Source of the DNA: Mycoplasmatales bacterium
GTDB lineage: Bacteria; Bacillota_I; Bacilli_A; Mycoplasmatales; G963692675
Direction of reading: 5' to 3'
NCBI GenBank assembly: GCA_963692675.1
Contig: OY830043.1
Coordinates: forward strand, 99,008 to 163,007
Length of the DNA stretch: 64,000 bases
Each line of letters begins with the position of its first letter. The first letter of the stretch is position 1. Below the pieces are notes generated by a model, which had not been told where the DNA came from, did not search any database, and saw nothing but the letters and a program-made list of their open reading frames with translations. The translations under genes and the position numbers were made by a program. Below, one piece after another: positions 2,381 to 64,000 of this stretch.

Positions 2381-3154
2381 CTAACAATTCTCCAATAATT
2401 TAATATAACTGGCAGCCTTGATTGATGCTCCACCTACTAAAACACCATCCACATTTTCTTTAGCACAAATAGTACCAATATTATCAGGTTTAACTGAACC
2501 ACCATATAAAATATGGGTTTTCTTTGCCATTTCATTTGTATATAAACTACTTAATAATTTTCTAATAACTAAAGCCATTTCTTCAGCATCCTTGGCAGAG
2601 GCAGTTTTTCCTGTTCCAATAGCTCAGATGGGTTCATATGCAATGTAAAGGTTTCTTAATTTAAGAATGGGTATTTTATTTAAAGCATGAGTTAATTGGT
2701 GAATTACAAAATCAACATGTTTTTTTTCATTTCTAATTTTTTCTGATTCACCACAACATAGGACCACACTTAAACCCCGATCTAAAGCTAGTGCTAGTTT
2801 TTTATGCACAGTTGCATTTGTTTCCTTAAATTTGGTTCGCCGTTCAGAATGACCAATAATCACAGTAGACACACCAATACTTAATAAAACATCAGGAGAA
2901 ATTTCCCCTGTATATGCTCCTTGTAAATTAGCTGCAACATTTTGAGCTAGAATTCACACATCAGTTGTTGAGTGTTCTAGGGCAGTAAATAAAAGTGGTG
3001 CTTGGGGAGCAAACCCCATTATCAGTCTTTTTTTATTCAATTTAGCTAAGTTATCATGATTTTTTAAATAAACTCGTAATTCATAACAAAATTCAATTGT
3101 TTCAGTTAAATCATTATTTAACTTTCAATTACCAAAGATTACTTTATTTCTCAT
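2381..3154 (-). CDS. tpiA: triosephosphate isomerase
   Basis: Fragments 2624-2872 and 2381-2578 extend upstream through TGA codons to an ATG at 3154. Motifs [21 protein letters not shown](TGA)-AIGTGK and LYGGSV are present. Confidence 0.9.
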
Positions 3155-4367
3155 TTGATTGCTCAGGTATTGGTTTAAACCCAATTAATTCTTTTCCTTC
3201 TAAAATAGTTAACAATGCACCCCCACCAGTAGAAACATGATTAAAATGATATTCATTTAAATCTAATTGATTAACTGCTGCCACTGAATCTCCACCACCA
3301 ATAACAACATAACCATCAGTTTTTCCTACTGCTTTAGCAATTGCCATTGTTCCAATAGCATATTTGGGAAACTCAAAAACACCCATAGGACCATTTCACA
3401 AAATAGTTTTTGCTTTAGCAATAACCTTAATAAATTGCTTAATACTATTTTTACCAATATCTAAACCCATCATTCCATCAGGAATTTCATCAACAAAATA
3501 GTGTTTATCACTGTCATTACTAAATTCATTAGTTCCGACATAATCAACAGGTAAAATGATTTTATTTGCATATTTATGAAGTAATTCATTAGCTAATTCT
3601 ACACGATCCTTTTCAAAAATAGAAGTTCCTATTTTTTTTCCTTGTGAGGAAATAAAAGTATAACTCATGCCCCCACCAATAAGTACCTGATCAGCTTTTT
3701 CTAAAAAAGTTGATAAAATACCAATTTTATCAGATACTTTTGCTCCTCCAAGAATAGCAAGAAAGGGCCTTTTTGGATTAATAAGAATTGGTTCTAAAGC
3801 TGTTAATTCTTTTTCAACTAGTCTTCCAACAACTGCTTCCTTACTGTATTTAGCAACTCCATAATTTGAAGCATGCTTTCTATGTCCTGTTCCAAAAGCA
3901 TCATTGACAAATACATCTGCTAAAGAAGCATAAAAACGTGCTAACTCATCATTACATTTGGATTCTCAATTTACTTGTGTATCATTTTGTACATCATAAT
4001 ATCTTGTGTTTTCTAGAAAAAGAATATCTGTTTGATTTATGTTACTTATTCTTGTTTTAACATGTTCAAAATCAGTAGCTGCTTCAAAAGAGACATTAAG
4101 ATTATCATCAGAAAGAATTTTTTTAAAAACATCATAGACTGGCCTTAAAGTAAGTTTTTCTTTATCAGCTTCTTTTTTTATTCGTCCCAAATGAGAAATA
4201 ATAACTAGTGTTTTAGCACTTTTAACAATTTCTTTAATTGTTGGAAGAACTTTTTTAATTCTATTAAAATCTGATATGGTTCCATCAGGATTAAAGGGAA
4301 CATTTAAATCAAATCTTGCTAAAACAACTTTATTAATTAAGCTAACATCATCTAAAGTTTTTTTCAA
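3144..4367 (-). CDS. pgk: phosphoglycerate kinase
   Basis: Three same-frame fragments (3966-4367, 3396-3668, 3144-3386) give 407 aa. Motifs RFDLNVP, ISHLGR and GGGDS are present. The apparent start is TTG, and the stop overlaps the tpiA start by 11 nt. Confidence 0.9.
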
Positions 4368-4380
4368 TATTTACTTCCCA

Positions 4381-10855: not shown

Positions 10856-11311
10856 TTAATTTCTTCTAAATTCTGATTCAGGCATGCTTTTTTTATAATA
10901 ATCATCTTTTTGATCATATCAATCATTTCTATGAGATCGTGAAGATTGTCTAAAAATTGGAGAAATTATTTCTTTTAAATGACTAGGCGTCCCAATATAA
11001 CCAGCTAATATTAATCACCCACCAATAGATCCTAAACAACTTGAAAGAATACCAATTGTCAAGATTAGTGCTCCATTTAATATTGTGCTTCCTTCTTCTG
11101 CATTTCTTAAATGAAAAATAGTAATTATAGATAAAAGCAAAATGAAACTGCCTATCCCAACACAAGATCAAACAATTGTACTTAGCAGTTTAGAATTGCC
11201 ATTATCAAAGTTATTAAATACTGCATTTATAATTAAGCTTACTATGATTATTATTGCTGCAAAAAAAATATTTATTGCTAAACCAACTTTTAGTAATTTA
11301 TGACTTCACAT
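10856..11311 (-). CDS. small multi-TM membrane protein (151 aa), paralog-family member
   Basis: Hand-translated frame from ATG 11311 to TAA 10856, with three TGA=Trp codons. Hydrophobic helices end in GSIGGWLILAGYIG. The track ORF 10983-11171 is a different, non-membrane-like frame of the same DNA. Confidence 0.5.
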
Positions 11312-11417
11312 TTTGTTTTCTCAATTTAACTAAAATAAATCAAACATTTTTGTTTATTTCTTATCTATCTAAAAAATCAGCATTTAGAAATAAACTTCTT
11401 AGTCTAATATTAGTAAA

Positions 11418-11990
11418 TTATGGAAATCTTCTATCTCTAGGGTGAGGACGACTTCTTGGTGGCCTTGGATTATCATCCCTATATTCTCTATGATCTCTTC
11501 TTGGTGGTTCCCTTCTGCCGGAATCATATGAATCATATTCATCATGAGCTCCACTATCATAATCATCTCTTCTTTCAGGTCTGGGATGAGAAGATCTTCG
11601 TGTTGGATCTTCTCACCGATCATGGCGATTATCATATAAATGATCTCTGTCTCTGTATGCATTTGGAGAAGTACTTGAAACATAGCCAATAAGAATTAAA
11701 ACCCCTCCAATAAAAGTAACAAAGAAAAGAGATATAATTCCTAATCCTAATATTAATCCTCTTTTTAATTCTTCTTGCTGTTGTTCTGCTTTTTTGACAT
11801 TTTTTAAAGCAACACTAGCTAAAGCTATATAAAAAATAGATAGAAGTAAAAATACTACTGATGCTGAAATAGGTAAAAGTATTCCTACAATGTTGTAAGT
11901 CACAATTAACATTGCCAAAAACAAGATTACAGCAAGCACTGCTGCAATTAAAACAAAAATTATTCCTATCTTCAAAACACGATATCCCAT
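11418..11990 (-). CDS. multi-TM membrane protein with ~70-aa Arg/Asp/Pro-rich C-terminal tail
   Basis: ORF 11613-11996 continues through a TGA to a TAA at 11418. ATG at 11990 follows a GAGGT Shine-Dalgarno. The last helix motif is GGVLILIGYV; the tail reads RRDDYDSGAHDEYDSYDSGRREPPRRDH... Confidence 0.6.
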
Positions 11991-12240
11991 ATACACCTCA
12001 ACAACTTAATTATAACAGAAAGATAACATAAAAAACACTTTAATTTATCTATTTATTATGATAAATAATTCCTTTTTCTTGTTTTTTAGTTAAATATTTC
12101 ATAATTGTAAATTACAAAAGAAAGCAACTACAATTCAGAAAATCAGTGATAATTCACATTATTTTCATTAATAATAATTTTTTAAAATTTAATTTTAATT
12201 TAAAAAATCACCAGTTAGAATAAGATTTAATTTTTATTTG

Positions 12241-12573
12241 TTATGAACCAGTTTTATATTTATGCAAGCCAATAAATATAATAATGCTTCCAAAAATAGT
12301 AATAAAAAAGAAAGAAAAAATTCCAAATATTAACATGAGCTTATCATTTAACTTTTCTTTGTTATACATAACTTTTCTAAGATGAAACAATACTTTATGA
12401 GCAACTATTATGAAGGAAATTGATCAAATTAATCCAATAATTGCAGGAATCATATAATTTACTTCTCAATTCTCAGAAATCATGCCAATTGCTATCAAAC
12501 ATCAACTTGCAAAACTAACTGCTAAAGTTAAAACTAGCAATACTCCTATTTTCATTACTTTTTGATAACTCAT
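12241..12573 (-). CDS. small multi-TM membrane protein (110 aa), paralog-family member
   Basis: ATG at 12573 follows a GAGGAG Shine-Dalgarno; TAA at 12241; TGA=Trp codons inside. The last helix reads GSIIIFIGL. Confidence 0.55.
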
Positions 12574-26034: not shown

Positions 26035-28020
26035 CTAATGGTTTATTGCTCGCATGAAGTGATGTCAAATAAACTTACCATAAAAAATGACTAGAGGAAG
26101 AAGTAAAATAACCCCTCCTTCTAATGCTCCTAAAGCAATACCAGCATCACTGTCTCCTCATGTTACACTTAATGAAATAAGGAGTGCTCCTAATATTATT
26201 GATGCTCCAATAAGAACTACGTTTTTTCTAATATATCTAAGTGCTCCTTGTGCTCCAACTCTTCTTTTGGCAATGTGACAAAGTTTTTCCCTTCTTTCTG
26301 GGGTCATTTTTCTTCGAATAGGAACCTTTTTGCCTTGAGCTCTTAATCTGGCATTATTAATTCTACCACTAAGAAGAATAAATGGTGTTCAAATAACCAT
26401 TGCAATCAATAAGTTGGCAACTGCTAATAATAATCCTTGATAAGCAAAACCGGTAGCAAATAATCCTCCTATTCCCGCGGGTATTGTTCAAGGTATTTGA
26501 ACAATAGTTGGTGGGACAGCTTCAAATACATCAAGTGCTAAATAGGTAGAAACTACCAAAATTGGCATTGTGAACATTCAAGGAATTACATAAACTGGGT
26601 TTGCAACCATTGGTACACCAAAAGTTACAGGTTCATTAATTTGAAATACTCCTGAAGGTAATGCAAACTTTGCAACCTCTACTTCTTCTTTTCGACGTTT
26701 TAAAATCATTGTCATAAAGATTCATCCAAGAGTAGCACAGGTTCCACCTAGGAAAATATATGCATCAAATGTTCCTCCTACAAAGGCAGGATAATCTGCA
26801 CTAACAACTGTTGGATCACCTACACCAGCAGCTTTATTATCAATGTTTTGTAGTAACAATGGTAATCAAAAAACAAAAACTCCATTAACAATATTGGTTC
26901 CATGAAGACCAAAGAATCAGAAAAAACCAATTAAAAAGACATATAGAATAGCTAACCCAAAATTAGCTGATGGATCTGATGCCAGCTTTAAGAATGGTTC
27001 TTGAAGCCCGATATTCATTGCGTCAGCAAATGTTCATCCATTTCCGCCATTAACTACTTTATCTACCTCATAGAATTTAGCAATAGGGCGATAAATTGAT
27101 ACAATTCGATCTCCTGCTGCATTCATTTCTCATGCTTGACGAGAATATCCTTCTAAAGCACTTGGTGCTGCAGTAAGGTCAGCTACTGTGCCTGATTGTG
27201 TTACAACTGATGTAGTTTTACCTAATTCATGAGTTGTTCCAGCTCATAGTGTTTGAACCTTATCAATATAAGTTGGATCAGTTACCTGTTCAAAATATTG
27301 TTTTGATTCAGTTGCTGTTGCATCTGTTAAATATGTTGGTACAATGAAAATTGCATTTAAAGCAGCAATAATTATTGCTGTTAAAATGACTGGTATCATT
27401 TTTGAAAAAGCTTTTGCAACAGCAGGTGGTACTCCTTCAGGTAAAGATATTAATAATTTATCCACCTTACACAAAGAAACAAAAACTTCTGTTGCAACAA
27501 TTCCTACAACCAAAGAAGCAAAAACTCCTGAAGTTCCATAAAAAGATGTTTGGCCACCAGTAGCTATTACAAAACAACCTAATGCCACTAATGCTGCCAT
27601 AACAGGATGTTCAAATCTACGAGATCTTGCCAAAAAATAACCTAATGCTAAAGGCAGGTAAATTGAAATACTGCCTAAAGTACCTGAAAAGATACTAGCG
27701 GAAACAACAGTTCCTAAAATTCTAGAATCATAGAAAGCTAATGATGCCCCACTGGTTTTTGCAACTGCAGTATTTGATCATTCAGCAAATAAACCATGGA
27801 TTGATGATTGGTGTGCTCCTCAGCCACCAAACACAACAGTAATTACTAAAACTGCAACAGCTCCAGCAATAATTAAAGGTGTAATTAGAGCAAAGCCATC
27901 TCTTATTGAAGATAGGTGCCGCTGATTACCAATTTTGGCCATTGCGGGCACAAGTTTCGTATTAAGAAATTCATCTAAGCCTCCCGATTTCTTTTTTAAA
28001 GTCTGATGTTGTTCACTCAT
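26035..28020 (-). CDS. PTS cellobiose/chitobiose-family EIIC permease, enlarged (661 aa)
   Basis: I translated 27244 down to 26035 codon by codon: only TGA interruptions, with a TAG stop at 26035. ATG at 28020 lies 5 nt after GGAGG. Has the typical EIIC N-terminus (LVPAMAKIGNQRHLSSIRDGF). Confidence 0.85.
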
Positions 28021-28499
28021 ACTTACCTCCATAAATTACTTTATATTATTTTACTATAAAAAAAACCAAGCTGTAAAATTTTACAATATTAAGTAATAAT
28101 GGTTTTCATTATACTTGTTATTAAAAATCTTTTTTTACAACTAAAATTAAAAAAAATTAAAAAAGTGCTAGTTTATCTATCTTGAAATTTATTAACCATA
28201 CATAATAATTTACCTGCAAAAAAGAGTTAGAATTAATGTTTAATTAAAGTAGGAAATTACATAAAGTTAAAGTAGGTAGCAATAAATAAATTGTAGTATT
28301 ATTTTAAGAATGATTAAAAATAAAAAAACACCTTTAAAAATATCAGTAGTTATATTTCATATATAATCCTTAATTAGATTTAATGCTGATTCTTTTTTAA
28401 CATTAAAAAAAGTAAATAATGATTCCAATCAATTAACTAGAATTTATATCAATACATATTGAATTATTAAATAATTTTCTTATTTATAATTAACCAAAA

Positions 28500-29885
28500 C
28501 TAGATTTTTACATCAACTTCTTTTTGCATAATGATGTCTTTAAACCAATATGCTGATTTTTTTGGAATGCGATTACCTGTTTTCAAATCTAGTCGGAAAA
28601 CTCCATAACGATTTTTATAAGCATTTAATCATGATCAATTATCAATATAAGTTCACATAGAATATCCACAACAATTTGATCCTTCAGCAACTGCTTTTGC
28701 AACTCAGGCTAAATGTTCCCCATGAAACTGAATACGATAATCATCTTGTACTTGACCATCTTCATTAAGAAGTTTTTCCTCACCTTCAACACCCATACCA
28801 TTTTCAGTAATCATACATTTAATATTGTTGTAATGATTTTTTAGAGTCATTAAAACATCATAAATTGCTGGAGGATAAATTTCCCATCCCCTGGAAACAT
28901 TCATTCTTGCCTTGGGTCAATGATATAAATTAAAAAAACTAGAGAAATCAAGTTGATCATTATTTAAGATAGCTTTCGGTGCACAAACCCGAGATGGTGC
29001 ATAATAATTTATCCCAATTAAATCTACAATCCCCTTTTTAATTAATTCCTGATCACCTTTTTCTTTCTTAATACTAATATTTTTACTTTTAAGTAATTCA
29101 AAAAAATAATTGTCATATGCTCCCTTGATTGCTGGCTCTAGAAAACAAATGTGTAATAAATGGTCAGCATTATTTGCTGCTAATACATCCTCAGGACTAT
29201 TTGTTTTAGGAATTGGATGAAGTAAATTTAAAATAAGTCCTATTTCGCCATCTTTTATTTTTTGTTTACGGAATTCTTTAACAGCTAAAGCATGAGCAAG
29301 AACTAAATGATATTGAACTTGATAACATCGTTTAAAATCCTTTACACATGGATAATGTTTATCTAATAAATAACCACAAGTTGCAACAACAATTGGTTCA
29401 TTAAATGTAAATCATATTTTTACTCGATCAGAAAAAAGTTCAAAACAACGCTTAGCAAAAACCCCAAACAAACGAACAACTTCTCTTGATTCTCATCCTC
29501 CTAATTTTTGAGCTCACATTGGCATATCAAAATGAAATAAATGTAATATAGGTTTAATTCCATGCAAAATCATTTCATTGATTAAATTATTGTAGTGTTT
29601 AAGGGCCCGTTTACAAATTCTTTTTCCATCTGGAAATAAACGCGACCAAGAAATAGAAGTATTAAGAATTTTGTATCCCAATCACTTAGCTAATTTAATA
29701 TCTTTTTTATAATGTATGGAACTGTGATTTAATACTGGTTGTTGTTGATAAAAACGCTCCGGTTCCTTTTTATATCAATATGATCAGATATCATCTACTC
29801 TACCAGGTCCTTTATCAAAGTTATATATTTGGGGAGAACAAGTTGAGGAACCAAATAAAAAATTCTTAGGAAATTTATAAATCAT
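28500..29885 (-). CDS. GH1 6-phospho-beta-glucosidase
   Basis: ATG at 29885 follows AGGAGG. GH1 motifs are present: TFNEP (acid/base Glu) and ITENGMG (nucleophile Glu). 461 aa. Confidence 0.88.
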
Positions 29886-35826: not shown

Positions 35827-36177
35827 TTATTTAGTTAATGAAGGAGAAATTACAACTTTTTCATTCTTATTTTTCAATATGGAAATTTCTTCTAATTTAT
35901 GAAGTAGTTTTTTTTGTCCTAAATATAATAATATTGATCCAATAATGGTAGGAATTGCTAGAACTATTAGACAATAGGCCATTAACATACTAAATTTCTT
36001 TGCTCCTTCAATTGCTTGTGAATAATTTAAATAACTAGATAAAAAAAATAAGAAAAGAAAAATTAAGGGAATAAATAATCATAATAAATAAATATTTTCA
36101 ATAAAAATCAATGCTGTTATTGATGCAGTTATATAACAAAATAATGTATAAAAAAAACCAATTCTAAATACTTTCAC
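35827..36177 (-). CDS. possible small membrane protein (116 aa, GTG start)
   Basis: An open frame occupies the position where pstB would be expected. It is hydrophobic with no motif. It could be spurious in AT-rich DNA. Confidence 0.3.
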
Positions 36178-36193
36178 TGATATCTTTTATATT

Positions 36194-39452: not shown

Positions 39453-39480
39453 ATAGTTCCTCCTATCACAAAATAAGTTT

Positions 39481-39522
39481 ATTATAATCTTAATAAGAAA
39501 ATATAACTTTTTTCTTATAAGA
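39481..39522 (-). promoter_or_regulatory. candidate pstS promoter (-10 TATAAT) with two TCTTA..TAAGA inverted repeats
   Basis: Read on the minus strand, TATAAT is at 39486-39481. Palindromes TCTTAATAAGA (39488-39498) and TCTTATAAGA (39513-39522) lie just upstream. The DNA is AT-rich, so chance is not excluded. Confidence 0.25.
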
Positions 39523-39570
39523 GTAATTGCAAGAAAAAACTTTAAAATAATGAATAACTAAAATATCTAT

Positions 39571-40219: not shown

Positions 40220-41191
40220 TTAATTATTTAGAAAAACTGCTTGATTATAAGGAATCTCAAATGTAACAGAAGTCCCAATATTCACATGAGAAATGATTTT
40301 AATATCCCCACCTAATCGATAAAGTAATTTTTTCACAATGTATAAACCAAGACCAACACCATTTTTCTTTTGTTTCATATTGTCAGAAAAAAAGGGAACA
40401 AAAATGTTTTCTAGATTTTTCTTCTTAATCCCTAATCCACTATCTTCAATTACACAAACAAGTTTTTTCTCCTCTAATCATATACAAACACTTATTGAGT
40501 CATTTTTATCAACATATTTAGTTGAATTATCCAATAACGAAAAGACAATTCGTTCTAAGATTTGAATTCCCCCAACTATTGACACCTTTTCTATTTGATT
40601 TTTAGTATTATCAAAAGAATACTCAATATTTTTATCTGCTCATGAAGCTAAATATTTATTTTTAATTGAATCTTGGAGATCTTTTATTGAAACCATGGCA
40701 TAATTATCTCATCAAAATTCAATTGTTCCTAATTCCATTAATGAATTAATTGTTAATTCGAGCATGCCACAAGCTCGGTTAATAATTTCTTTTTCCTTCT
40801 TCTTTGTTTTCATTAAATCAGTAGCTCAGCGAATTTTTGTTAGTGGAGTTTTTAATTCATGTCCCACAGCTAACAACATGTCATCAAAAGCTTGATTAGA
40901 AAAGGAAGTAGCTAAAATAAAACAATAATAATCATTTTCTCACTTTTGGGTTCCCTCAATTTTTATTTTTTTTAGAATATAATTTTGATTTAAAAATGTA
41001 ATTTGGGAACCATCCTCAATATAAATATATGGATTCAAATGTGAAAAGAATACTCTAGGAGAATGGGAGGTTTGAAAATGACAAATATTTGCAAAATGTT
41101 TATTTCAGAGAACAACTTTTTTGTCATCAATAATAACTGCTGGTTGTTTTATAATGTGTAAAATTTTTTTAATGAAATCCAGATTCTTCAT
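40220..41191 (-). CDS. sensor histidine kinase, cytoplasmic (no TM segment), 323 aa
   Basis: Hand translation (absent from the track because of TGA codons). H-box GHELKTPLT, N-box LLDNSTKY, G1 DSGLGI, G2 GVGLGL. Length is an exact multiple of 3 from ATG 41191 to TAA 40220. Confidence 0.8.
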
Positions 41192-41874
41192 TATAATTTC
41201 GAACTCCCAAAACAATATCCCTTATTTTTAACATATAAAATAAATTGCTTTCCAAGTTTTTTTCTAATACTAGAAATACATGAACGTAAGCGATTAGTAA
41301 TGATTGTTGCTTCATTAATTCCTCATATATGAGATAATAAATCTTTTCTTGTTACTTCTTTTTGTTTTTCATAAAGTAGTTTTATTATTGCTACTTCTTT
41401 GTGTTCTAATCTAATCACAGTACCATTTTTTTTGGCAGTTCTTTTTTCAAAATTAATTTCTCATGAACCAATTTGAATTTTAGAAATTAAATTTGCCTTG
41501 ATTCCTTTTCTAATATGTGTTTTTATATGTTGCACAAGAACATCAGCAGAATAGGGTTTAGTTAAGTAATGATCAGCTCCTAATACTAAACATTCAATTT
41601 GTTTTTTAGGGTCATGTATGGCACTATGCATCATTATCAATGCATGAGGGTATTTTTCTCTAATAGTATCCACCATTTTGTCACCATTAAATCCTGGTAT
41701 CATTATATCAAGAATAAAACAATACTGAAAATCATTAATAATGGGTGAATGAATTATGGTTTTAAATAATGCTGGTCCATTTTGAAATAATGTTACTTCT
41801 CATTTCTGTTCTTTTAGAACTTTACTCACTAAATATGCTAAATCTAGATCATCTTCTAATAAATAGATTTTCAT
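41191..41874 (-). CDS. OmpR/PhoB-family response regulator (227 aa)
   Basis: Starts MKIYLLEDD. Has the phospho-acceptor region ILDIMIPG, LTKP, and a C-terminal winged helix ending GYCF. ORF 41461-41703 is the central fragment. The TAA overlaps the kinase ATG (TAATG). Confidence 0.85.
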
Positions 41875-41878
41875 TAAA

Positions 41879-54066: not shown

Positions 54067-54642
54067 TTAAAATCTATTAGCTAATTTATGATTTCAGTTT
54101 TTTACTGGCATATAAGAACATTTTGCTTGATGATCAAAAGCAAATATTGAGCATCAACTTTCTAGAACAACAAATAATCCAATTAATGGCATTAATGAAA
54201 AAGATACAATAAACAGAGCCTTTCAAAAAGCAAGTTTATGAATCCCTGCTTGCACTTTGCATATGTGACGAAAAAGTCAAATGTTTAATATAAATTGAAA
54301 TAAGATCACATAGCTTAATAAAGAAAGTCCTCCAATTATTACCAGTTCGTCAGTTTTATGTGAAAAAATGTCAATAATTCAATTTGGAACATTTTCATCT
54401 CTAATAGCTGCAGCTATATCATAATTAAATGCATCATGCACTCAGTCAGCAGCATTATTTGGTAAAACATCATATAATCAGGCTGTTTCTCCAACTACTG
54501 ATAAAATTGCTATTAAAGTAGCAATGATTAATGGAATAAGAATTAATACCCCAATAAAGATATTCATTACTGCACCATATTTCAACATTAAAAGCCTTTT
54601 TTCTAAAAAAACTTGCTTTTTATATCCTATATTTCTTTTCAT
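54067..54642 (-). CDS. multi-TM membrane protein, family B copy 2 (191 aa)
   Basis: ORF 54478-54660 extends through TGA codons to a TAA at 54067. ATG at 54642 follows GGGGAGGAAAT. Colinear paralog of 55409-55969. Confidence 0.6.
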
Positions 54643-54667
54643 ATTTCCTCCCCAAAACATGTTTACC

Positions 54668-55384
54668 TTAATAAAATCGATTGCATCTTTCCATTGATGC
54701 TAAATCCATTTCTAAGTTTTCTATTCTTTGATTCTGTCTTCTTTTATTTAAGTATATATTTTCCTTAATTCTACTGTTATTTTTTTCTAAATCTCAAATC
54801 CTTTTTTTAAGTTCTAACTTAAGAGAATTTGGAGACATAGCCTTGTGTCAACATTGGTTTTTAAAATGATTATTTTCATTAACATAATCATTTTTTTCTT
54901 GTGTGCAAGTAGTTATGACTGGCTTTCTTATGATTGGAGTTCTGTTGGCACTCACATACTGGTTAGTTAGTAAAGCTTCTTGTTTAACAGTTATTCCTGT
55001 TTTTAAACCAACTAAACCAATTAACATAAATACTCCACCACCAATACCTAAACTAAGTAACATTGCCATGATAAAATAACCTAAGTGAATTTTTGACTTA
55101 CTTCTAACTAAGCGGTTAATCTTTCCTAGTGGACACACTCCTACTAGAAAAAACATGCTAACTAGAGCAATGCTAATTGCAATTGGTTTAAGTATGTTGA
55201 GTGTTGAAACATTATCACTAAATAATCATTCATCAATACTACTTTTACTGACATTTAATGGATCAAAAATATTATCCATTATTAATGTATAAAAATTATC
55301 AACTAACTGCATTAATGTAAATGCTACACCCACTAGCAGTATTACCACAATGTTTAACACTGCTCCAAATTTATATATATTCAT
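54668..55384 (-). CDS. multi-TM membrane protein with coiled-coil/Arg-rich tail, family A copy 2 (238 aa)
   Basis: ATG at 55384 follows GGGGAGGAAAT. ORF 54848-55156 is the central fragment. The N-terminal 140 aa and the C-terminal RIENLEMDLAS motif match 55994-56713. Confidence 0.65.
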
Positions 55385-55408
55385 ATTTCCTCCCCAAAAA
55401 ATACTTTA

Positions 55409-55969
55409 TTAATATTTATAATACGGTTGTCTTATTGCTTTATAACCTTTAACTCTTCTATGAGCTGATTCAGGTGAATCAAAACTAAGTAATAACACAA
55501 AAATGGTTGTTACTCACATAAATGAAAAAATAGTCACTAATAAGGCTTTTCCTAATGCTAATTTACAAACCCCATTTGTTACCCGACTAGTATGCTTTAA
55601 TAACCATCCATTTAAAAATAATTGTACAAAAACAATTCAGCCTAAAATAACCAAACTACCAATCATTAATAGTTTATCAACATCTTGCGCTAAGATGTCA
55701 TTAATTCATTCTGGTAGGTTTTCTTTTGCTAATGCTTTTTCGATATCAAAAGCTAATACTTTCTCGATTCACTCACCCCAATTTGCAGGTAAAATATCAA
55801 ATAATAACTTTATTTCTCCAGTTACAGATAAGATACTAATAACTACTATCAAGATAATCGGAATTAGTAGCAAAATACCTAAAAAAATATTAAATAAAGC
55901 ACTAAATCTTAATCATCCAACTCTTTTATCAAAAACTCCTATTACAGAGCTAACTCTTTTTTGTCTCAT
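55409..55969 (-). CDS. multi-TM membrane protein, family B copy 1 (186 aa)
   Basis: Hand-translated and frame-checked from ATG 55969 to TAA 55409, with several TGA=Trp codons. NIFLGILLLIPIILIVVISILSVTGE aligns with copy 2. The plus-strand track ORF 55503-55997 is antisense to it. Confidence 0.6.
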
Positions 55970-55993
55970 TTTTTCTCCCCAAAATTTCCTAAC

Positions 55994-56713
55994 TTAACGT
56001 CGGTTACGTCTCCTTGTTGATGCTAAATCCATTTCTAAGTTTTCGATTCTTCGATTTTGTCTTCTTTCAGTAAAATATGCATTTTCTTCCATTCTTACAT
56101 TATGTCTTTTTAAATCTCGGATTCTCTTTTTTAATTCCATTACAGAAGCATCCTGAGCTCCTCTTTTATGAAATAAGCCTTGAGAATACTGTTCATCACT
56201 TTCATTAACATAATCCCCATCAGCTGCTACATAACTGTTTTGATCCAAAATATCAAATGTTCGATCATCTTCTTGAACATACTGATACTGATTATCTAGC
56301 AGTTGGGATTGTTTGACATATATTCCAGATCTTAAACCAACTAAACCAATCAACATAAATAATCCACCGCCAAAACCTAAACTAAGTAACATTGCAAAAA
56401 CAAAATAAAGAAGCTTAACTTTTGAACCACTTCTAATTAAATGCTTAATCTTGACTAATGGATACACTCCAACTAAAAAAAACATGACAATTAATCCAAC
56501 ACTAATCGCAATTGGCTTAAGCATGTTGATTGTTGAATAATTATCAATAAATAATAAATCATCAACAATATTTTTACTGACATTTAATGGATCAAAAATA
56601 TTCTCCATTACTAATGTGTAAAAACTATCAACAACATGCATTAATGCAAATGCCACACCTAATAGCAGTATTGCCACAATGTTCAACACTGCTCCAAATC
56701 TATATATATTCAT
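55994..56713 (-). CDS. multi-TM membrane protein with coiled-coil/Arg-rich tail, family A copy 1 (239 aa)
   Basis: Intact track ORF with a GGGGAGGAAAT Shine-Dalgarno. Several predicted TM helices are followed by an acidic linker and a basic heptad-like tail ...RIENLEMDLASTRRRNRR. Confidence 0.7.
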   Translation of the reverse strand: MNIYRFGAVLNIVAILLLGVAFALMHVVDSFYTLVMENIFDPLNVSKNIVDDLLFIDNYSTINMLKPIAISVGLIVMFFLVGVYPLVKIKHLIRSGSKVKLLYFVFAMLLSLGFGGGLFMLIGLVGLRSGIYVKQSQLLDNQYQYVQEDDRTFDILDQNSYVAADGDYVNESDEQYSQGLFHKRGAQDASVMELKKRIRDLKRHNVRMEENAYFTERRQNRRIENLEMDLASTRRRNRR

Positions 56714-56739
56714 ATTTCCTCCCCAAAAATACTTCTTCT

Positions 56740-57309
56740 TTATCGATGCCTATAATAAGGTCTTCTCCGAGCATTACCTCTTCTTACATCATAAGGTCTT
56801 CTTATAGCTCTAGATTGAAAGCTTATTGGTTTTTTTGCAAAACAACCAATAAGCATAAATATTCCTGTAGCTAAAGGTATTATTGAAAGAACTGAAACAA
56901 AAACTGCATATAATTTTGACATATCTGCTATTCCTTGTCTTGCCTTGGTTATATTTACTAAAAGTTTAATAGTCATAAGTATGTTTACACTAAAAACATA
57001 TGATGCTAATCCAAAAGAAACTCCCATAATTAACAGATCAATATCTTCAGTTAAAACTGTTTTAACCCAAGATGGTAAATGTGCTGTTACCATTTCTGAT
57101 GCAGAAGTAACATTAGCATCTAATAACAACTTTAATTGTTCAAGATCTGTTGAATTAGGAAGAATTATTTTTAATGACTCTACATTTCCAGTATAAAAAA
57201 ATGTTGCGATAATTCCAATACCAAGTGCTCCTAAAAACACTGGGATACCTAAAATAACATTAATTATTGCCCAAAATTTTAAAAAGGACATTCCTTTTCC
57301 TTGATTCAT
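56740..57309 (-). CDS. multi-TM membrane protein with Arg-rich tail, related architecture (189 aa)
   Basis: Intact track ORF with a GAGGAG Shine-Dalgarno. Same layout (TM1, ~55-aa loop, later helices ending GIFMLIGCF) and the tail RRPYDVRRGNARRRPYYRHR. Confidence 0.7.
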   Translation of the reverse strand: MNQGKGMSFLKFWAIINVILGIPVFLGALGIGIIATFFYTGNVESLKIILPNSTDLEQLKLLLDANVTSASEMVTAHLPSWVKTVLTEDIDLLIMGVSFGLASYVFSVNILMTIKLLVNITKARQGIADMSKLYAVFVSVLSIIPLATGIFMLIGCFAKKPISFQSRAIRRPYDVRRGNARRRPYYRHR

Positions 57310-59695: not shown

Positions 59696-62365
59696 TTATG
59701 AATTGACCTTTCCAACAAAGACTTTTAATTCAGCATCACTAGCTCTTCCAAACATTTTATCATAAATCTTATTTAATTCTTCATTTGCACCATTTGTAAG
59801 TGAAGATCCAAAAACTGATTCTATATCAGGGTTGCTTACCCCAGCATTAAAATCTGCAAATCTTGGACCTCAAAAATGAAGAATCAGACGATTATTTACT
59901 GTTGTTATTTCAAATCTTATTGTTGCTTTTAATCTTGCTACACCACCACCTAATCGTACTTGTTCTCAACTAGAAGTACCAGAAGCACCACCTCTTCTCA
60001 CTGATACTTCTAGAGTTGTATCTGAAAATGGTTCCACAACCACTAAATCTGTTTCCAGAGTTGATTGCTGATTAAAATCATGTTGATAAACTCGAAAATA
60101 AGCTAGGCCTTCTGCATTAACTCCAGCTCCTGTAGGGTGAAGAACTAATGTAACAAAAAGATTTATTCGTCCAGTCTGAGTTATTCCTAAGCTAGTCAAA
60201 TCAATTTCACCTTGCTTTGCTGGAGTGTTTTGTCATGTTGTTGGATCTCCAGTAACAGAAACTTCTGCAGAGGTTCCTGAAGCAGCAGCAGGTAAACCAG
60301 TAACTTTTGCTTGTGATAAATCAAGATTTCCTCTTATTGTAGTAGTTGAATCATCTGTAGTAAGTGAAGCATTATTGCCATTATAGCCAATAGTCAAGGT
60401 TCTTTGAGTTGTTCCACTAGTAGGTGCTGTAGAAATTATCGTTGTGTCACCCTCTGCTCTTGTTGTACCGCGTACTATTAAATTTCTATTAGCCTCAATG
60501 GTATCTTCAAATTGTGCACGCTTGTTGACAGTTAAGGAAAGTACTGGTCCCACACCTGAACCTAAACCCGCTCTTCCAATTGTTACATGCCCAGTTACAG
60601 TAAGATCAGCAAAATCACTTGCTGCTGTTCCTCCTGGATTTCCAACAGTTACATCACTTAATAATGTGGTAGTTCCTTTAATTTCTGTTGTTCCTGTTAC
60701 TAATAAACTAGCTGTTGTTCCTCCAGTAGCAACATCTCCAATTTCTACATTACCCAGTAATGTAGAAGTGCTACCAACATTAACAGTTCCTGATATATCA
60801 AGATCTGCTGCTGCAGTTGTTGAGCCGACTGTAACGTCTCCTAATAATGTTGAAACTCCTTTTACTGAAGCCGTTCCTGAGACATCAAGATCAGCAGTTG
60901 CAGTAGTAGTTCCTACTGTTACATCACCTAATAAACTAGATTCTCCTCTTACTGTTAAATCTGCTGCTGCAGTTGTTGAACCAACTGTAACATCAGCAAG
61001 TAAACTTGTTGTGCCTTTAACTTCTGTTGATCCTGTTACTGTTAAATCTGCTGCTGCAGTTGTTGAACCAACTGTAACGTCTCCTAATAATGTTGAAGCT
61101 CCTTTTACTGAAGCTGTTCCTGAGACATCAAGATCAGCTGTTGCAGTAGTAGTTCCTACTGTTACATCACCTAATAAATTAGATTCTCCTCTTACTGTTA
61201 AATCTGCTGCTGCAGTTGTTGAACCAACTGTAACATCAGCAAGTAAACTTGTTGTGCCTTTAACTTCTGTTGATCCTGTTACTGTTAAATCTGCTGCTGC
61301 AGTTGTTGAGCCAACTGTAACATCTCCTAATAATGTTGATGCCCCTTTTACAGAAGCTGTTCCTGAAACATCAAGATCAGCTGTTGCAGTGGCAGTTCCT
61401 ACTGTTACATCACCTAATAAACTGGATTCTCCTGTTACTGTTAAATCAGCTGCTGTTCCTGTTGTATCCCCAATGGTTACTGTATTTAATAAAGTGGTTG
61501 TACCTCTAACTTCTACAGTGTCTGTTACAACTAAACTAGTAGATGTTGTTGATCCACTTACTGATAAACCTACAACTATTGCTCCTGTTAAATCAAGATT
61601 TCCATGAATCATGGTAGTAGAATCATCAGTTGTAATGGTATCATCTGCACCACTATATCCAATAATTAGCATTTTTTGGTTTGTTGATCCAGAAGTTGGA
61701 GGTTCATTAATTATTCTTGTATTCTCATTCAAGATTGTTTCCCCAGTAACATGCAACGTTTTTGGGTCAGCAGTGGTTCCTACAAAAAGATTAGAACTAA
61801 TGCCTAAAGGTCCTGTTGTATCGCTTAAGCTATCAAGAGCACTGCTATCAGCAGAAGTAGTTGCAAAAGCATCATGAGCAACTGAAGTTCCTGACACACT
61901 TGCTTTCATAAAATGCTTATTAATAAAATTATCTCATAATGATTCTACTTTTTCATTTACATTGGTTATTCCTTTTCCTAGCATACTTGTTTGTCCTAAA
62001 AAAACAGTTTGAAAAGTAGCATCAGGATTAGTTAGATCATCAGCACTAACTTGCTGCACTGCCCTTGCTTGAACCATCTCAGCAATATCATTTTGTAACT
62101 GTTTCTTTTCACTTTGAGGTTTAATCAGATTAGCTCCTTGTAATTGTCCTACTTTTAATTCACTTACTGGGGTGGGTTCCTTAGGTTTTAGATCACCTTC
62201 TAAAATAAAATATGCAACTGCTCCAGCACCTGCAGCTGCAGCTGCAAGTGCAAAAAAAGTTACAGCAAAAACAGCTCATCGATGAGCCTTTTTTGTAACA
62301 AACCCTTTTTTATTTTTTATTTTCCGACTTCTTCTTGGCCTTTCGAAAATTTCATTATCTTCCAT
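59696..62365 (-). CDS. membrane-anchored repeat (beta-solenoid-like) surface protein with C-terminal globular domain (889 aa)
   Basis: ATG at 62365 follows GAAGGAG. The N-terminal 152 codons, ORF 60233-61909, ORF 59966-60199 and the 3' extension to TAA 59696 were all frame-checked codon by codon; only TGA interruptions were found. Confidence 0.8.
60794..61432 (-). repeat. 243-bp (81-codon) near-perfect tandem repeat, about 2.6 copies, inside the surface-protein gene
   Basis: The DNA string aaatctgctgctgcagttgttgaaccaactgtaacatcagcaagtaaacttgttgtgcc recurs 243 nt apart. The protein unit GES(S/N)LLGDVTVGT.TATADLDVSGTASVKGASTLLGDVTVGSTTAAADLTVTGSTEVKGTTSLLADVTVGSTTAAADLTVR is repeated. Confidence 0.85.
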
Positions 62366-64000
62366 ATTTACTCCTTCAATTATGTAAACACATACTTATT
62401 ACTTCTTAATTAATTATAATATATTTATATTAATTCAATAAATATAGTAAATAATACAAATAAATTAAAATATTTTACATAAAATTATGTAATTAGAACT
62501 AAATTACATACAATTTAGTATTATTAAATCAATTATCTTTTAATAATTAGTTTTACAATTATTAGAAATTATAATTTGTTATTTTTACTATTAAGCATTA
62601 ATAATTCCATTTTATTCAAATATTTACAAAAAATCTTTAATTTTAGTTAAAATTTAATAATTAAAAAAGCAATTTCAAATTATAAAAAGGTATTTTAAAA
62701 CAAATTTAATAAAAATAATCTTCAAAATAGAAGTTATCTTTTTATAATTTAAATTGGATGAAATAAATAGATTGTGTGATCAAATTAATGTTTTTATTAT
62801 AAAAAAACTTTACTTATAAAAGCTCTTAAATTAGTTCCATCTGATTGTTAAAAGTGTATCTGGTACTTTGCTATTTCAGCAAAATTCATTGTAACCTGAA
62901 AAAATAATGTTAAATCAAACTTACAATATTTTAAAATGGATTTGAATATCCATTGGCTAATTTATTTTTTTATGTGCATTCAACCTGCCATTTCCATAAC
63001 TCTCCATGTGCAAAATCTTCCTTCTATACCTATTGGAGTAAACTTGTTGATCAGTTTGTTCAGTTAATACATTCTTATTTGAAGAAAAAATGATAGAAAT
63101 AATGTAATGGTCCAACTATAATTTATTTGAGTTGCATTTGCTAACTCATTATCTTAATGCTTCGAAACGTTTGATTGAATTATTTTAACAATATCATCTT
63201 GTAATTCTTTTTTGTTCCATAAGAGTTAATAATAGTAAGCCCATTCAATTTACCTACATTTAATGACACTTAGCAATTGTGCTTGAATCATTTGTTTTGC
63301 TGACAATTGCTACTTTACAATATTGCCTTTTGTAACATAATATCAACTGTTTCTAAAATTGCTGCAATAGCTAATGCTAAACTGTTAGAGAAACTGCTAT
63401 TCAACAATGCATTTTTTATTGTGATAATTTTGTAAAATTTTTTTAACTATTTTTCTTACTGATACTGATTTGTAAAAAAATTTATAACTTGCTGTACCTT
63501 CCTCTTTCTTATATACCTCACTTTGATTCTAACTTATCCAAAATAACGGAATAAAAAATTTTGGAAAAATAATAATGAAAATTTCAAATTAATCTATAAT
63601 TTTTTACATTACTAAATTTATAAAACCAAAAAACTAATAATGATGTTTAAATTTATGTAATTATTTTTAATGATAAATTACTATTAATTCGTAAATTTTT
63701 TATTAATCTTTAAATATTGATGATTCTATATTTAGTTAATACATAATTTAGATAATGCTTTCTAATTATAAAATTACAAAATAACCAACTAGCTAATTAA
63801 GATTTATCATTAATCAAATAAAATTATTAATCTAATGAAATATGATTGAAATTCACAAAAAAAATATTTATAATTATATTTCTAGTTTAAATGTTTCATT
63901 ATCCTAGACAAGATAAATTTTTGTATTTGAAGAAAACATGTTTTTATAATAAAGCTTTTATTTTCAATTATGCGTAAAAAAATATACAGTCTTTATTTTA

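Follow-up and report, generated by a model that had tools for sequence, protein, structure and literature searches.

Does a bacterium that reads UGA as tryptophan keep an intact two-component system and, if so, what does that system control? The question is raised by a locus on contig OY830043.1 of a Mycoplasmatales bacterium (assembly GCA_963692675.1), of which we analysed a 64-kb stretch (positions 99,008 to 163,007), referred to below as the window. On its minus strand, a response regulator gene and a histidine kinase gene lie directly upstream of pstS and a fused pstC-pstA gene (pstCA). An earlier note on this DNA had described the two genes as a complete two-component pair, a description that domains, residues and synteny all bear out, and we consider it very probable that they form a real, functional system with a soluble kinase. 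That the pair controls pstS-pstCA in response to phosphate, in the manner of PhoPR or PnpRS, has about an even chance of being right on the basis of gene context.

Genetic code and organisation of the locus

The minus-strand genes of the locus were found to be open only when TGA is read as tryptophan, as in the table-4 translation of the window, whose guanine-cytosine (GC) content ranges from 23 to 38%. The open reading frame (ORF) of the regulator contains three in-frame TGA codons and that of the kinase contains seven, so that under standard-code gene calling neither ORF is intact, as had been stated in the earlier note. All ten tryptophan codons of the two genes are TGA, and the TGA codon of W184 in the regulator aligns with a tryptophan of P0130, the only distant regulator homologue found. 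Overall, the source shows the features of Mollicutes with UGA as tryptophan, namely in-frame TGA at tryptophan positions, AT-rich DNA, a genome of 791 kb and core genes of the Bacillota type. Ribosomal protein uL13 of the window was closest to lactococcal, enterococcal, bacillar and M. pneumoniae proteins; no ribosomal RNA gene was found in the 64 kb.

The order of genes on the same strand is pcrA, regulator, kinase, the orphan gene d1, pstS and pstCA. The 227-residue regulator and the 323-residue kinase, both recovered by table-4 translation, share one nucleotide (nt) between the stop codon of the former and the start codon of the latter (TAATG; TTA TAA/ATG), which agrees with the earlier description. 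This overlap is not kept in relatives (window 41875-41878 and L004 7985-8001): in L004, an earlier TAA gives a regulator of 224 residues followed by a 9-nt spacer before the kinase, and in L005 the junction reads TAAATG. On the upstream side, 4 nt separate the pcrA stop codon from the ATG of the regulator, with an AGGA motif located 9-14 nt upstream of this ATG, and the pair is probably co-transcribed with pcrA. On the downstream side, the Arg-rich orphan, pstS and pstCA follow in the order previously reported, with pstC and pstA found to be fused.

Response regulator and histidine kinase

In the Pfam scan that the earlier note had proposed, the domains Response_reg (E = 6.9e-15, 55.6 bits against a cutoff of 30.2) and Trans_reg_C (E = 2.2e-12, 47.3 bits against 26.2) were found in the regulator, and HATPase_c (E = 3.6e-22, 79.3 bits against 26.4) in the kinase, where HisKA (E = 5.9e-6, 26.7 bits) fell 0.2 bits under its gathering score of 26.9. 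The domain matches of both proteins are far beyond chance. Moreover, all the motifs quoted in the earlier note were present at their places, namely LLEDD (residues 5-9), ILDIMIPG (54-61), LTKP (104-107) and a C-terminal GYCF in the regulator, and GHELKTPLT (110-118), LLDNSTKY (219-226), DSGLGI (250-255) and GVGLGL (278-283) in the kinase.

The regulator has both the receiver pocket and the winged helix of the OmpR/PhoB family. Its receiver residues are complete (E7/D8/D9, D56, S84 and K106, the last in K106-P107), and it aligned over its full length with DrrD (1kgs; E = 1e-21); the structures of RegX3, PrrA, MtrA and PhoP were likewise aligned from end to end.

The kinase belongs to class I (HisKA), with an H-box containing E-x-x-T and a GHKL domain containing the N, G1, F and G2 boxes. 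In an alignment of 24 sequences, H111, N222, G252, G280 and G282 were invariant in the kinase and its distant homologues, and D250, G254 and G278 were conserved in at least 90%; the F-box residues (F264/F267) were also present. The catalytic histidine and aspartate, of whose possible absence the earlier note had warned, are thus both in place on alignment (H111 in the kinase and D56 in the regulator). Among the PDB profiles, those of SrrB (3e-14), YycG and HK853 matched the kinase core and covered the DHp domain. The Foldseek matches of the core were HK853, YycG and CusS, with template modelling (TM) scores, normalised to target length, of at most 0.80. In HisKA kinases, the H-E-x-x-T motif goes with a bifunctional kinase/phosphatase; the H-E-L-K-T of this protein implies that it would also act as a phosphatase.

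No transmembrane segment was found in the kinase: the highest Kyte-Doolittle mean over 19 residues was 1.44 and was located inside the ATPase domain, compared with 2.5 for the signal anchor of PstS. A stop closes the frame 12 codons ahead of the ATG, and the sole alternative start would add eight non-hydrophobic residues. A hidden N-terminal membrane segment is thereby excluded, and the kinase is therefore cytoplasmic. The absence of a hydrophobic segment had already been pointed out in the earlier note. The coordinates of the features are given in Table 1.

Table 1. Features of the two-component locus and adjoining genes, from upstream to downstream on the minus strand
Feature	Size	Window coordinates	Strand	Description or basis
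UvrD/PcrA-type helicase (pcrA)	712 aa	41879-44017	minus	UvrD-helicase and UvrD_C Pfam matches on the ortholog
Response regulator, OmpR/PhoB family	227 aa	41191-41874	minus	Receiver and winged-helix DNA-binding domain
Soluble histidine kinase	323 aa	40220-41191	minus	PAS-like, DHp (HisKA) and CA (HATPase_c)
Putative PAS-like cytoplasmic sensor	Kinase residues 1-98	40898-41191	minus	Topology and fold matches
Catalytic core	Kinase residues 99-323	40223-40897	minus	DHp with H-box H111-E-L-K-T115; CA with N, G1, F and G2 boxes
Orphan d1	201 aa	39571-40176	minus	53-aa conserved N-terminal domain, variable linker, conserved middle, Arg/Tyr-rich tail
Intergenic region upstream of pstS	118 nt	39453-39570	minus	Candidate promoter or regulator-binding region
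PstS-like phosphate-binding protein	391 aa	38277-39452	minus	N-terminal membrane anchor; PBP_like_2 1.3e-13
Fused PstC-PstA permease	683 aa	36194-38245	minus	TIGR02138 PstC 298 bits (cutoff 196); TIGR00974 PstA 297 bits (cutoff 193)

N-terminal region of the kinase

The first ~110 residues of the kinase had been proposed to form a small PAS-like sensor. No significant match to a PAS profile was found for this N-terminus. When the N-terminal region alone was compared with Pfam, Per3-like PAS-A (E = 0.006, 17 bits against a cutoff of 27) and PAS_8 (E = 0.042, 14.2 bits against 21.8) both remained under their thresholds, and hhalign comparisons of the N-terminal 98 residues with eight PAS segments of homologues, whether global or local, were not significant (probability <1%). 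In the exhaustive HMMER search, a few alignments extended from the kinase core back into residues 40-100; in P0393 and P0389, the stretch aligned to these residues falls in an annotated PAS domain, of which it forms the C-terminal half.

An AlphaFold2 model based on the three orthologs alone was unusable, with a predicted local distance difference test (pLDDT) of 37. With the 24-sequence alignment, the mean pLDDT rose to 71, with values of 70-95 in the core and 42-65 in the N-terminal domain; much of the CA domain scored 83-95 (residues 211-270 and 281-310), the value falling to 60 in between, at residues 271-280. The topology predicted for the N-terminal domain is helix, strand, strand, helix, helix, strand, strand, strand, followed by the DHp helix. 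The longest Foldseek alignments (340-384 columns) were with PAS-DHp-CA kinases, namely WalK (9a5d, a model), VicK (4i5s), YF1 (4gcz) and ThkA (3a0r), a fold match that is supportive rather than independent, as PAS kinases were included in the input alignment of the model. A PAS fold of the sensor seems somewhat more likely than not; the earlier proposal is backed by predicted topology and Foldseek, and neither by Pfam (E-values of 0.006-0.04, sub-threshold) nor by hhalign.

The kinase resembles ThkA of Thermotoga, the cytoplasmic part of VicK/WalK and YF1 in predicted architecture and fold. It differs from them in sequence (12-18% identity); moreover, WalK and VicK are membrane proteins of cell-wall metabolism, and none of these kinases has a link to phosphate. 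Soluble PAS-DHp-CA kinases are common in bacteria. What is genuinely unusual here is the extreme divergence of both proteins, the complete loss of the anchor in a kinase that is PhoR-like by context, and a neighbourhood without pstB and phoU.

Conservation and distribution

Orthologs of the pair were found on two metagenome contigs (ENA ERZ21930211 and ERZ21930236), at about 90% amino-acid identity and with an identical gene order from a PLD-like gene through polA. The ratio of non-synonymous to synonymous substitution (dN/dS; Nei-Gojobori, three genomes) was 0.11-0.18 for the regulator and 0.15-0.20 for the kinase, indistinguishable from the values for pcrA, asnS, pstS and pstCA (0.09-0.16), and both genes are under purifying selection. 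Their GC content (26.6% and 27.1%) is like that of the neighbouring genes, and their codon usage matches the host.

The two proteins are extremely divergent, the next kinase showing 31% and the next regulator 24% identity, and the HisKA score lies just under the Pfam gathering threshold, as might be expected if the pair were a decaying or recently transferred remnant without current function. We consider this highly improbable, since the frames are intact in three genomes with all catalytic residues kept, the dN/dS values (0.11-0.20) equal those of housekeeping neighbours, and codon usage and GC content are host-like with every tryptophan encoded by TGA. Intact frames, low dN/dS, matching GC content and tryptophan codons that are all TGA thus argue against both a pseudogene and a recent transfer. 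The all-TGA tryptophan codons and neighbour-like GC content in particular exclude a recent import, and the pair appears to be long resident in a Bacillota-derived (Mollicute-type) lineage that reads UGA as tryptophan.

To either side of a wide gap, the kinase search of 5.8 billion clustered proteins returned its own clade and then matches of at most 31% identity over the core, mostly HAMP kinases from Clostridia. HMMER over 1.84 billion representatives scored its own cluster at 736 bits and the next matches, multi-domain kinases, at 128 bits or less; no kinase relative of intermediate distance was found in either collection. The regulator search returned its own cluster and then one match at 24%, a result that partly reflects the word-index limit of the search. 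Among GTDB representative genomes and JGI metagenomes, generic kinases alone were found (23-31% identity), in a search where several of the back-translated patterns held tryptophan, so that absence is unproven.

For AsnS of the window, related proteins on metagenome contigs were 92% and 60% identical, and the next ones, from Clostridia, 41-43%; the source organism is therefore a member of a sparsely sampled lineage. The contig with the 60% AsnS (L006; ENA ERZ26859067 ctg38178) keeps the upstream synteny, sharing the order of rplM and rpsI through the PLD-like gene, MatE, HIT and asnS, and ends inside pcrA. Several genes of this contig were called as fragments, with Hydrolase_3 in two pieces and a short GTPase.

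Two-component systems are rare exceptions among Mollicutes, and the M. penetrans genome paper reportedly describes one. A survey of sequenced Mollicutes found no histidine kinases (PMC1630713), and S. eriocheiris, M. genitalium and M. pneumoniae are without them (PMC5289999, PMC1183210). The first exception came from Acholeplasma laidlawii (PMC2408644); two-component systems are also present in M. penetrans and M. iowae (PMC3639085). The statement in the earlier note that Mollicutes lack such systems, with Acholeplasma as the usual exception, is therefore too strong, and its claim of novelty was overstated: a two-component pair in a Mollicute with UGA as tryptophan is rare, and M. penetrans and M. 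iowae provide precedents. The pair described here resembles the systems of A. laidlawii, M. penetrans and M. iowae in being such an exception (PMC1630713, PMC2408644, PMC3639085). In the searches described above, an orthologous pair with the same synteny was found in the two close contigs alone. Since no Mollicute protein occurs among the best 120 kinase matches listed or among the regulator matches, the pair is not a close ortholog of the three known systems.

Evidence for a link to phosphate

In S. pneumoniae, pnpRS is located immediately upstream of pst1 and induces pst1 under phosphate limitation (PMC4913102, PMC6232261). As in the window, an OmpR-family regulator gene is followed there by a HisKA kinase gene, both co-oriented upstream of pstS. 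PnpS, which likewise has no sequence-recognisable PAS domain (PMC4913102), was the top NCBIfam match of the kinase (101.9 bits), followed by a MASE3-PAS kinase (96.5 bits), PhoR in third place (85.7 bits) and then many others. The PnpRS operon differs in that it continues with pstB and phoU, PhoU2 controlling the phosphorylation of PnpR; in the window, the kinase has no membrane segment, its gene is separated from pstS by an orphan, and PstC and PstA are encoded as a fusion.

Similar arrangements were observed among distant homologues of the kinase, two out of the six examined being encoded in phoPR-pst-phoU clusters of Clostridia. The homologue with the highest distant identity, P0015 (locus L017; 34% over the catalytic core), is encoded in a cluster of regulator, HAMP-PAS kinase, pstS, pstC, pstA, pstB and phoU. 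It shares with the window the order of regulator, kinase, pstS and pst permease, as well as a PAS domain directly before the DHp domain. It differs by its length of 564 residues, with an N-terminal membrane/extracytoplasmic part and HAMP, and by separate pstC and pstA genes followed by pstB and phoU. The second cluster compared, that of P0078 (locus L021), comprises pstSCAB, phoU, regulator and kinase.

The PhoR-PhoB(P) systems of E. coli and B. subtilis also share with the pair a cytoplasmic PAS-DHp-CA module, an OmpR/PhoB-type regulator and a signal inside the cell (PMC6232261). Their PhoR is membrane-anchored, unlike the kinase of the window; that of E. coli needs PhoU/PstB, and that of B. 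subtilis senses wall teichoic acid intermediates, which are not expected in a wall-less organism. In classical PhoR, sensing takes place in the cytoplasmic PAS domain, with PhoU/PstB as intermediaries (PMC6232261), so that the loss of the anchor is compatible with a retained function. For the same reason, the intracellular signal is not the departure from classical PhoR that the earlier note had taken it to be (PMC6232261).

Overall, the locus reads as a reduced PhoPR/PnpRS arrangement, in which the kinase would have been trimmed, pstC and pstA fused, pstB and phoU unlinked or lost, and an orphan inserted. The analysis establishes the genes with their domains and catalytic residues, the solubility of the kinase, the selective constraint and the synteny; from these we infer the phosphate signal, the pst target and the route of the signal to the PAS-like domain. 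In the mechanism that we propose, the kinase, cytoplasmic, dimeric and of the HisKA class, would autophosphorylate on His111 and pass the phosphoryl group to Asp56 of the OmpR/PhoB-type regulator, which, once phosphorylated under phosphate limitation, would activate pstS-pstCA and perhaps d1 too. Compared with a PhoR-type sensor, the kinase would be reduced to the cytoplasmic part, its membrane anchor and HAMP having been lost. The signal might reach the PAS-like domain through a PhoU/PstB partner encoded elsewhere, or by direct binding of a metabolite.

Several observations weigh against control by phosphate. The kinase is far from the equivalog cutoffs, with 101.9 bits against 400 for PnpS and 85.7 against 334 for phoR_proteo. 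The regulator scored alike against PhoB, MtrA, CopR, RppA and RpaB in NCBIfam, reaching 81.2 bits (cutoff 296) and 85.6 bits (cutoff 270) with PhoB models, and it is 28% identical to a Clostridial PhoP and 27% to an unrelated regulator, a comparison that is not discriminating. Against the PhoR and PhoB equivalogs TIGR02966 and TIGR02154, the pair was likewise far under the cutoffs. Four of the six distant homologues examined lie in unrelated contexts. The pair abuts pcrA translationally, and not pst, and d1 with its own TATAAT is placed between the kinase and pstS. Upstream of pstS, no Pho-box-like direct repeat was statistically supported in comparison with shuffled sequence. Moreover, the sequence gives no significant support to the PAS assignment, neither pstB nor phoU is present in the 64 kb, and the genomes sharing the synteny are close relatives (dS 0.07-0.4), making the conserved order weak as independent evidence. 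Among the features expected of a phosphate regulon, linkage to pst was thus found, and an equivalog score and a membrane-anchored kinase were not. By itself, the sequence assigns no regulon; the gene context does better. The PhoR/PhoP-like control suggested in the earlier note accordingly keeps the pst linkage, the PnpS and PhoR matches and the contexts of two homologues out of six on its side, with the equivalog cutoffs and the non-discriminating regulator against it.

Alternatively, the pair may be a real two-component system with a signal and a regulon unrelated to phosphate, and be adjacent to pst incidentally; this is appreciably less probable than phosphate control. Such a pair would be expressed with pcrA and may control d1 or distant targets in response to a cytoplasmic cue (redox, metabolite or stress). 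The 4-nt gap and AGGA between pcrA and the regulator would fit this, as would family scores that do not single out PhoB/PhoR, top structural matches to WalK and VicK, the location of most sampled homologues away from pst, and the separation of the kinase from pstS by d1 with its own TATAAT and strong ribosome-binding site. Against it, same-strand linkage to pst is the classic Pho arrangement and recurs in distant homologues (PMC4913102), and the window suggests no alternative target or signal.

The earlier note had also described the pair as being without its PstB and PhoU partners. No protein with Walker A and LSGGQ motifs was found in the 64 kb, where pstB and phoU are thus unlinked to the pair; the description holds for the window, which represents ~8% of the 791-kb genome, and does not extend to the rest of it. 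One could therefore imagine a PhoPR-like pair with a new mode of sensing, in which the cytosolic PAS-like domain reads an intracellular metabolite of phosphorus status and PstB and PhoU play no part. The soluble kinase, the lack of both an ATP-binding cassette (ABC) ATPase and PhoU in the 64 kb, and the small membrane protein and dhaK that follow pstCA in three genomes would be consistent with it, and an intracellular phosphorus-starvation signal has recently been argued even for Salmonella PhoR (PMC11389368). We regard this as unlikely: the window covers 8% of the genome, an ABC importer needs an ATPase, so that pstB, often accompanied by phoU, is very probably encoded elsewhere, and the PAS fold, together with any ligand pocket, is putative (pLDDT 42-65).

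Orphan d1, intergenic regions and pst genes

The d1 protein matched nothing in Pfam, NCBIfam or the PDB. It is present in all three genomes, at 78-80% amino-acid identity to the protein of the window, with a dN/dS of 0.43-0.51 that indicates a more relaxed constraint, and its Arg/Tyr-rich tail reads RRPMQRRRQRPFPYQYRR. Elsewhere in the window (54067-57309 and 10856-12573, both minus), small multi-pass membrane proteins of 186-239 aa form arrays of paralogs, and several of these proteins end in Arg/Tyr-rich tails resembling that of d1; one member (56740-57309) had no match in NCBIfam.

The 43-nt gap between the kinase and d1 contains TATAAT and a strong ribosome-binding site (GGGGAGG). Upstream of pstS, the window carries TATAAT where the relatives carry TGTAAT, with no clear -35 element, and the aligned region showed a mean column identity of 94% in three genomes, coding flanks included. 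This region contains an invariant palindrome, TCTTATAAGA, and TCTT repeats (TCTT(A)) spaced by 12 and 24 nt, none of which was enriched relative to shuffled sequence. The palindrome was considered as an operator and rejected, as it occurs in one exact copy in the window, fewer than in shuffled controls. A scan for sigma-70-like promoters found fewer sites than in shuffled sequence and was uninformative. No terminator was predicted between the kinase and pstS, in a scan that predicted three terminators against a shuffled mean of 2.4 and was otherwise uninformative.

In NCBIfam, the PstS-like protein matched TIGR02136 ptsS_2 (2.3e-26) and TIGR04505 PtsS_plasma (1e-8), both under the cutoffs; the weak PtsS_plasma match adds to the Mollicute-type features of the source. 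The pstCA gene is followed by a small ORF of ~116 residues with a GTG start and three predicted membrane helices (35827-36186, minus) and then by dhaK. The small membrane ORF and dhaK follow pstCA in all three genomes, and dhaKLM is present in the window.

Other genes of the window

Outside the locus, a membrane-anchored protein of 1176 residues (14678-18208, minus) exhibits two tandem GH19 chitinase domains (Glyco_hydro_19, 2.8e-65). Candidates for nagA/nagB (12837-14619, plus), as well as phosphotransferase system (PTS) components and a 6-phospho-beta-glucosidase (24398-29885), were read from position and N-terminal sequence. Together, the GH19 protein and the nag/PTS genes point to a niche rich in chitin, for example the gut of an arthropod or a fungal host. 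Another membrane-anchored protein, of 889 residues (59696-62365, minus), is made of tandem repeats of ~40 residues rich in Thr, Gly and Val (TLLGDVTVGSTTAAADLTVTG); with a GC content of 38% against ~29% elsewhere, it is likely a variable surface protein, and an antisense ORF of 629 residues (60498-62387, plus) is probably an artefact of the repeats. Finally, pgk (3144-4380, minus) is intact, with an apparent non-ATG start; an ORF finder restricted to ATG cuts it to 174 residues.

Biological meaning

Mollicutes that read UGA as tryptophan are generally said to have lost signalling by histidine kinases, and each intact system shows what survives genome reduction; the circuit that survives here appears to be that of phosphate acquisition. 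Calling genes with the standard code fragments the proteins of code-4 genomes, and surveys of signalling genes may thus under-count them. The kinase is unusually small and soluble and, if the assignment to Pho is true, would offer a stripped-down PAS-DHp-CA module for asking what PhoR-type kinases sense in the cytoplasm. If direct sensing by the kinase were true, in a near-minimal, wall-less cell devoid of PhoU and of a PstB linked to signalling, the pair would form a Pho system independent of the membrane. No simpler natural circuit for sensing phosphate would then be known, and the intracellular signal of PhoR, which is under debate, would have a tractable model.

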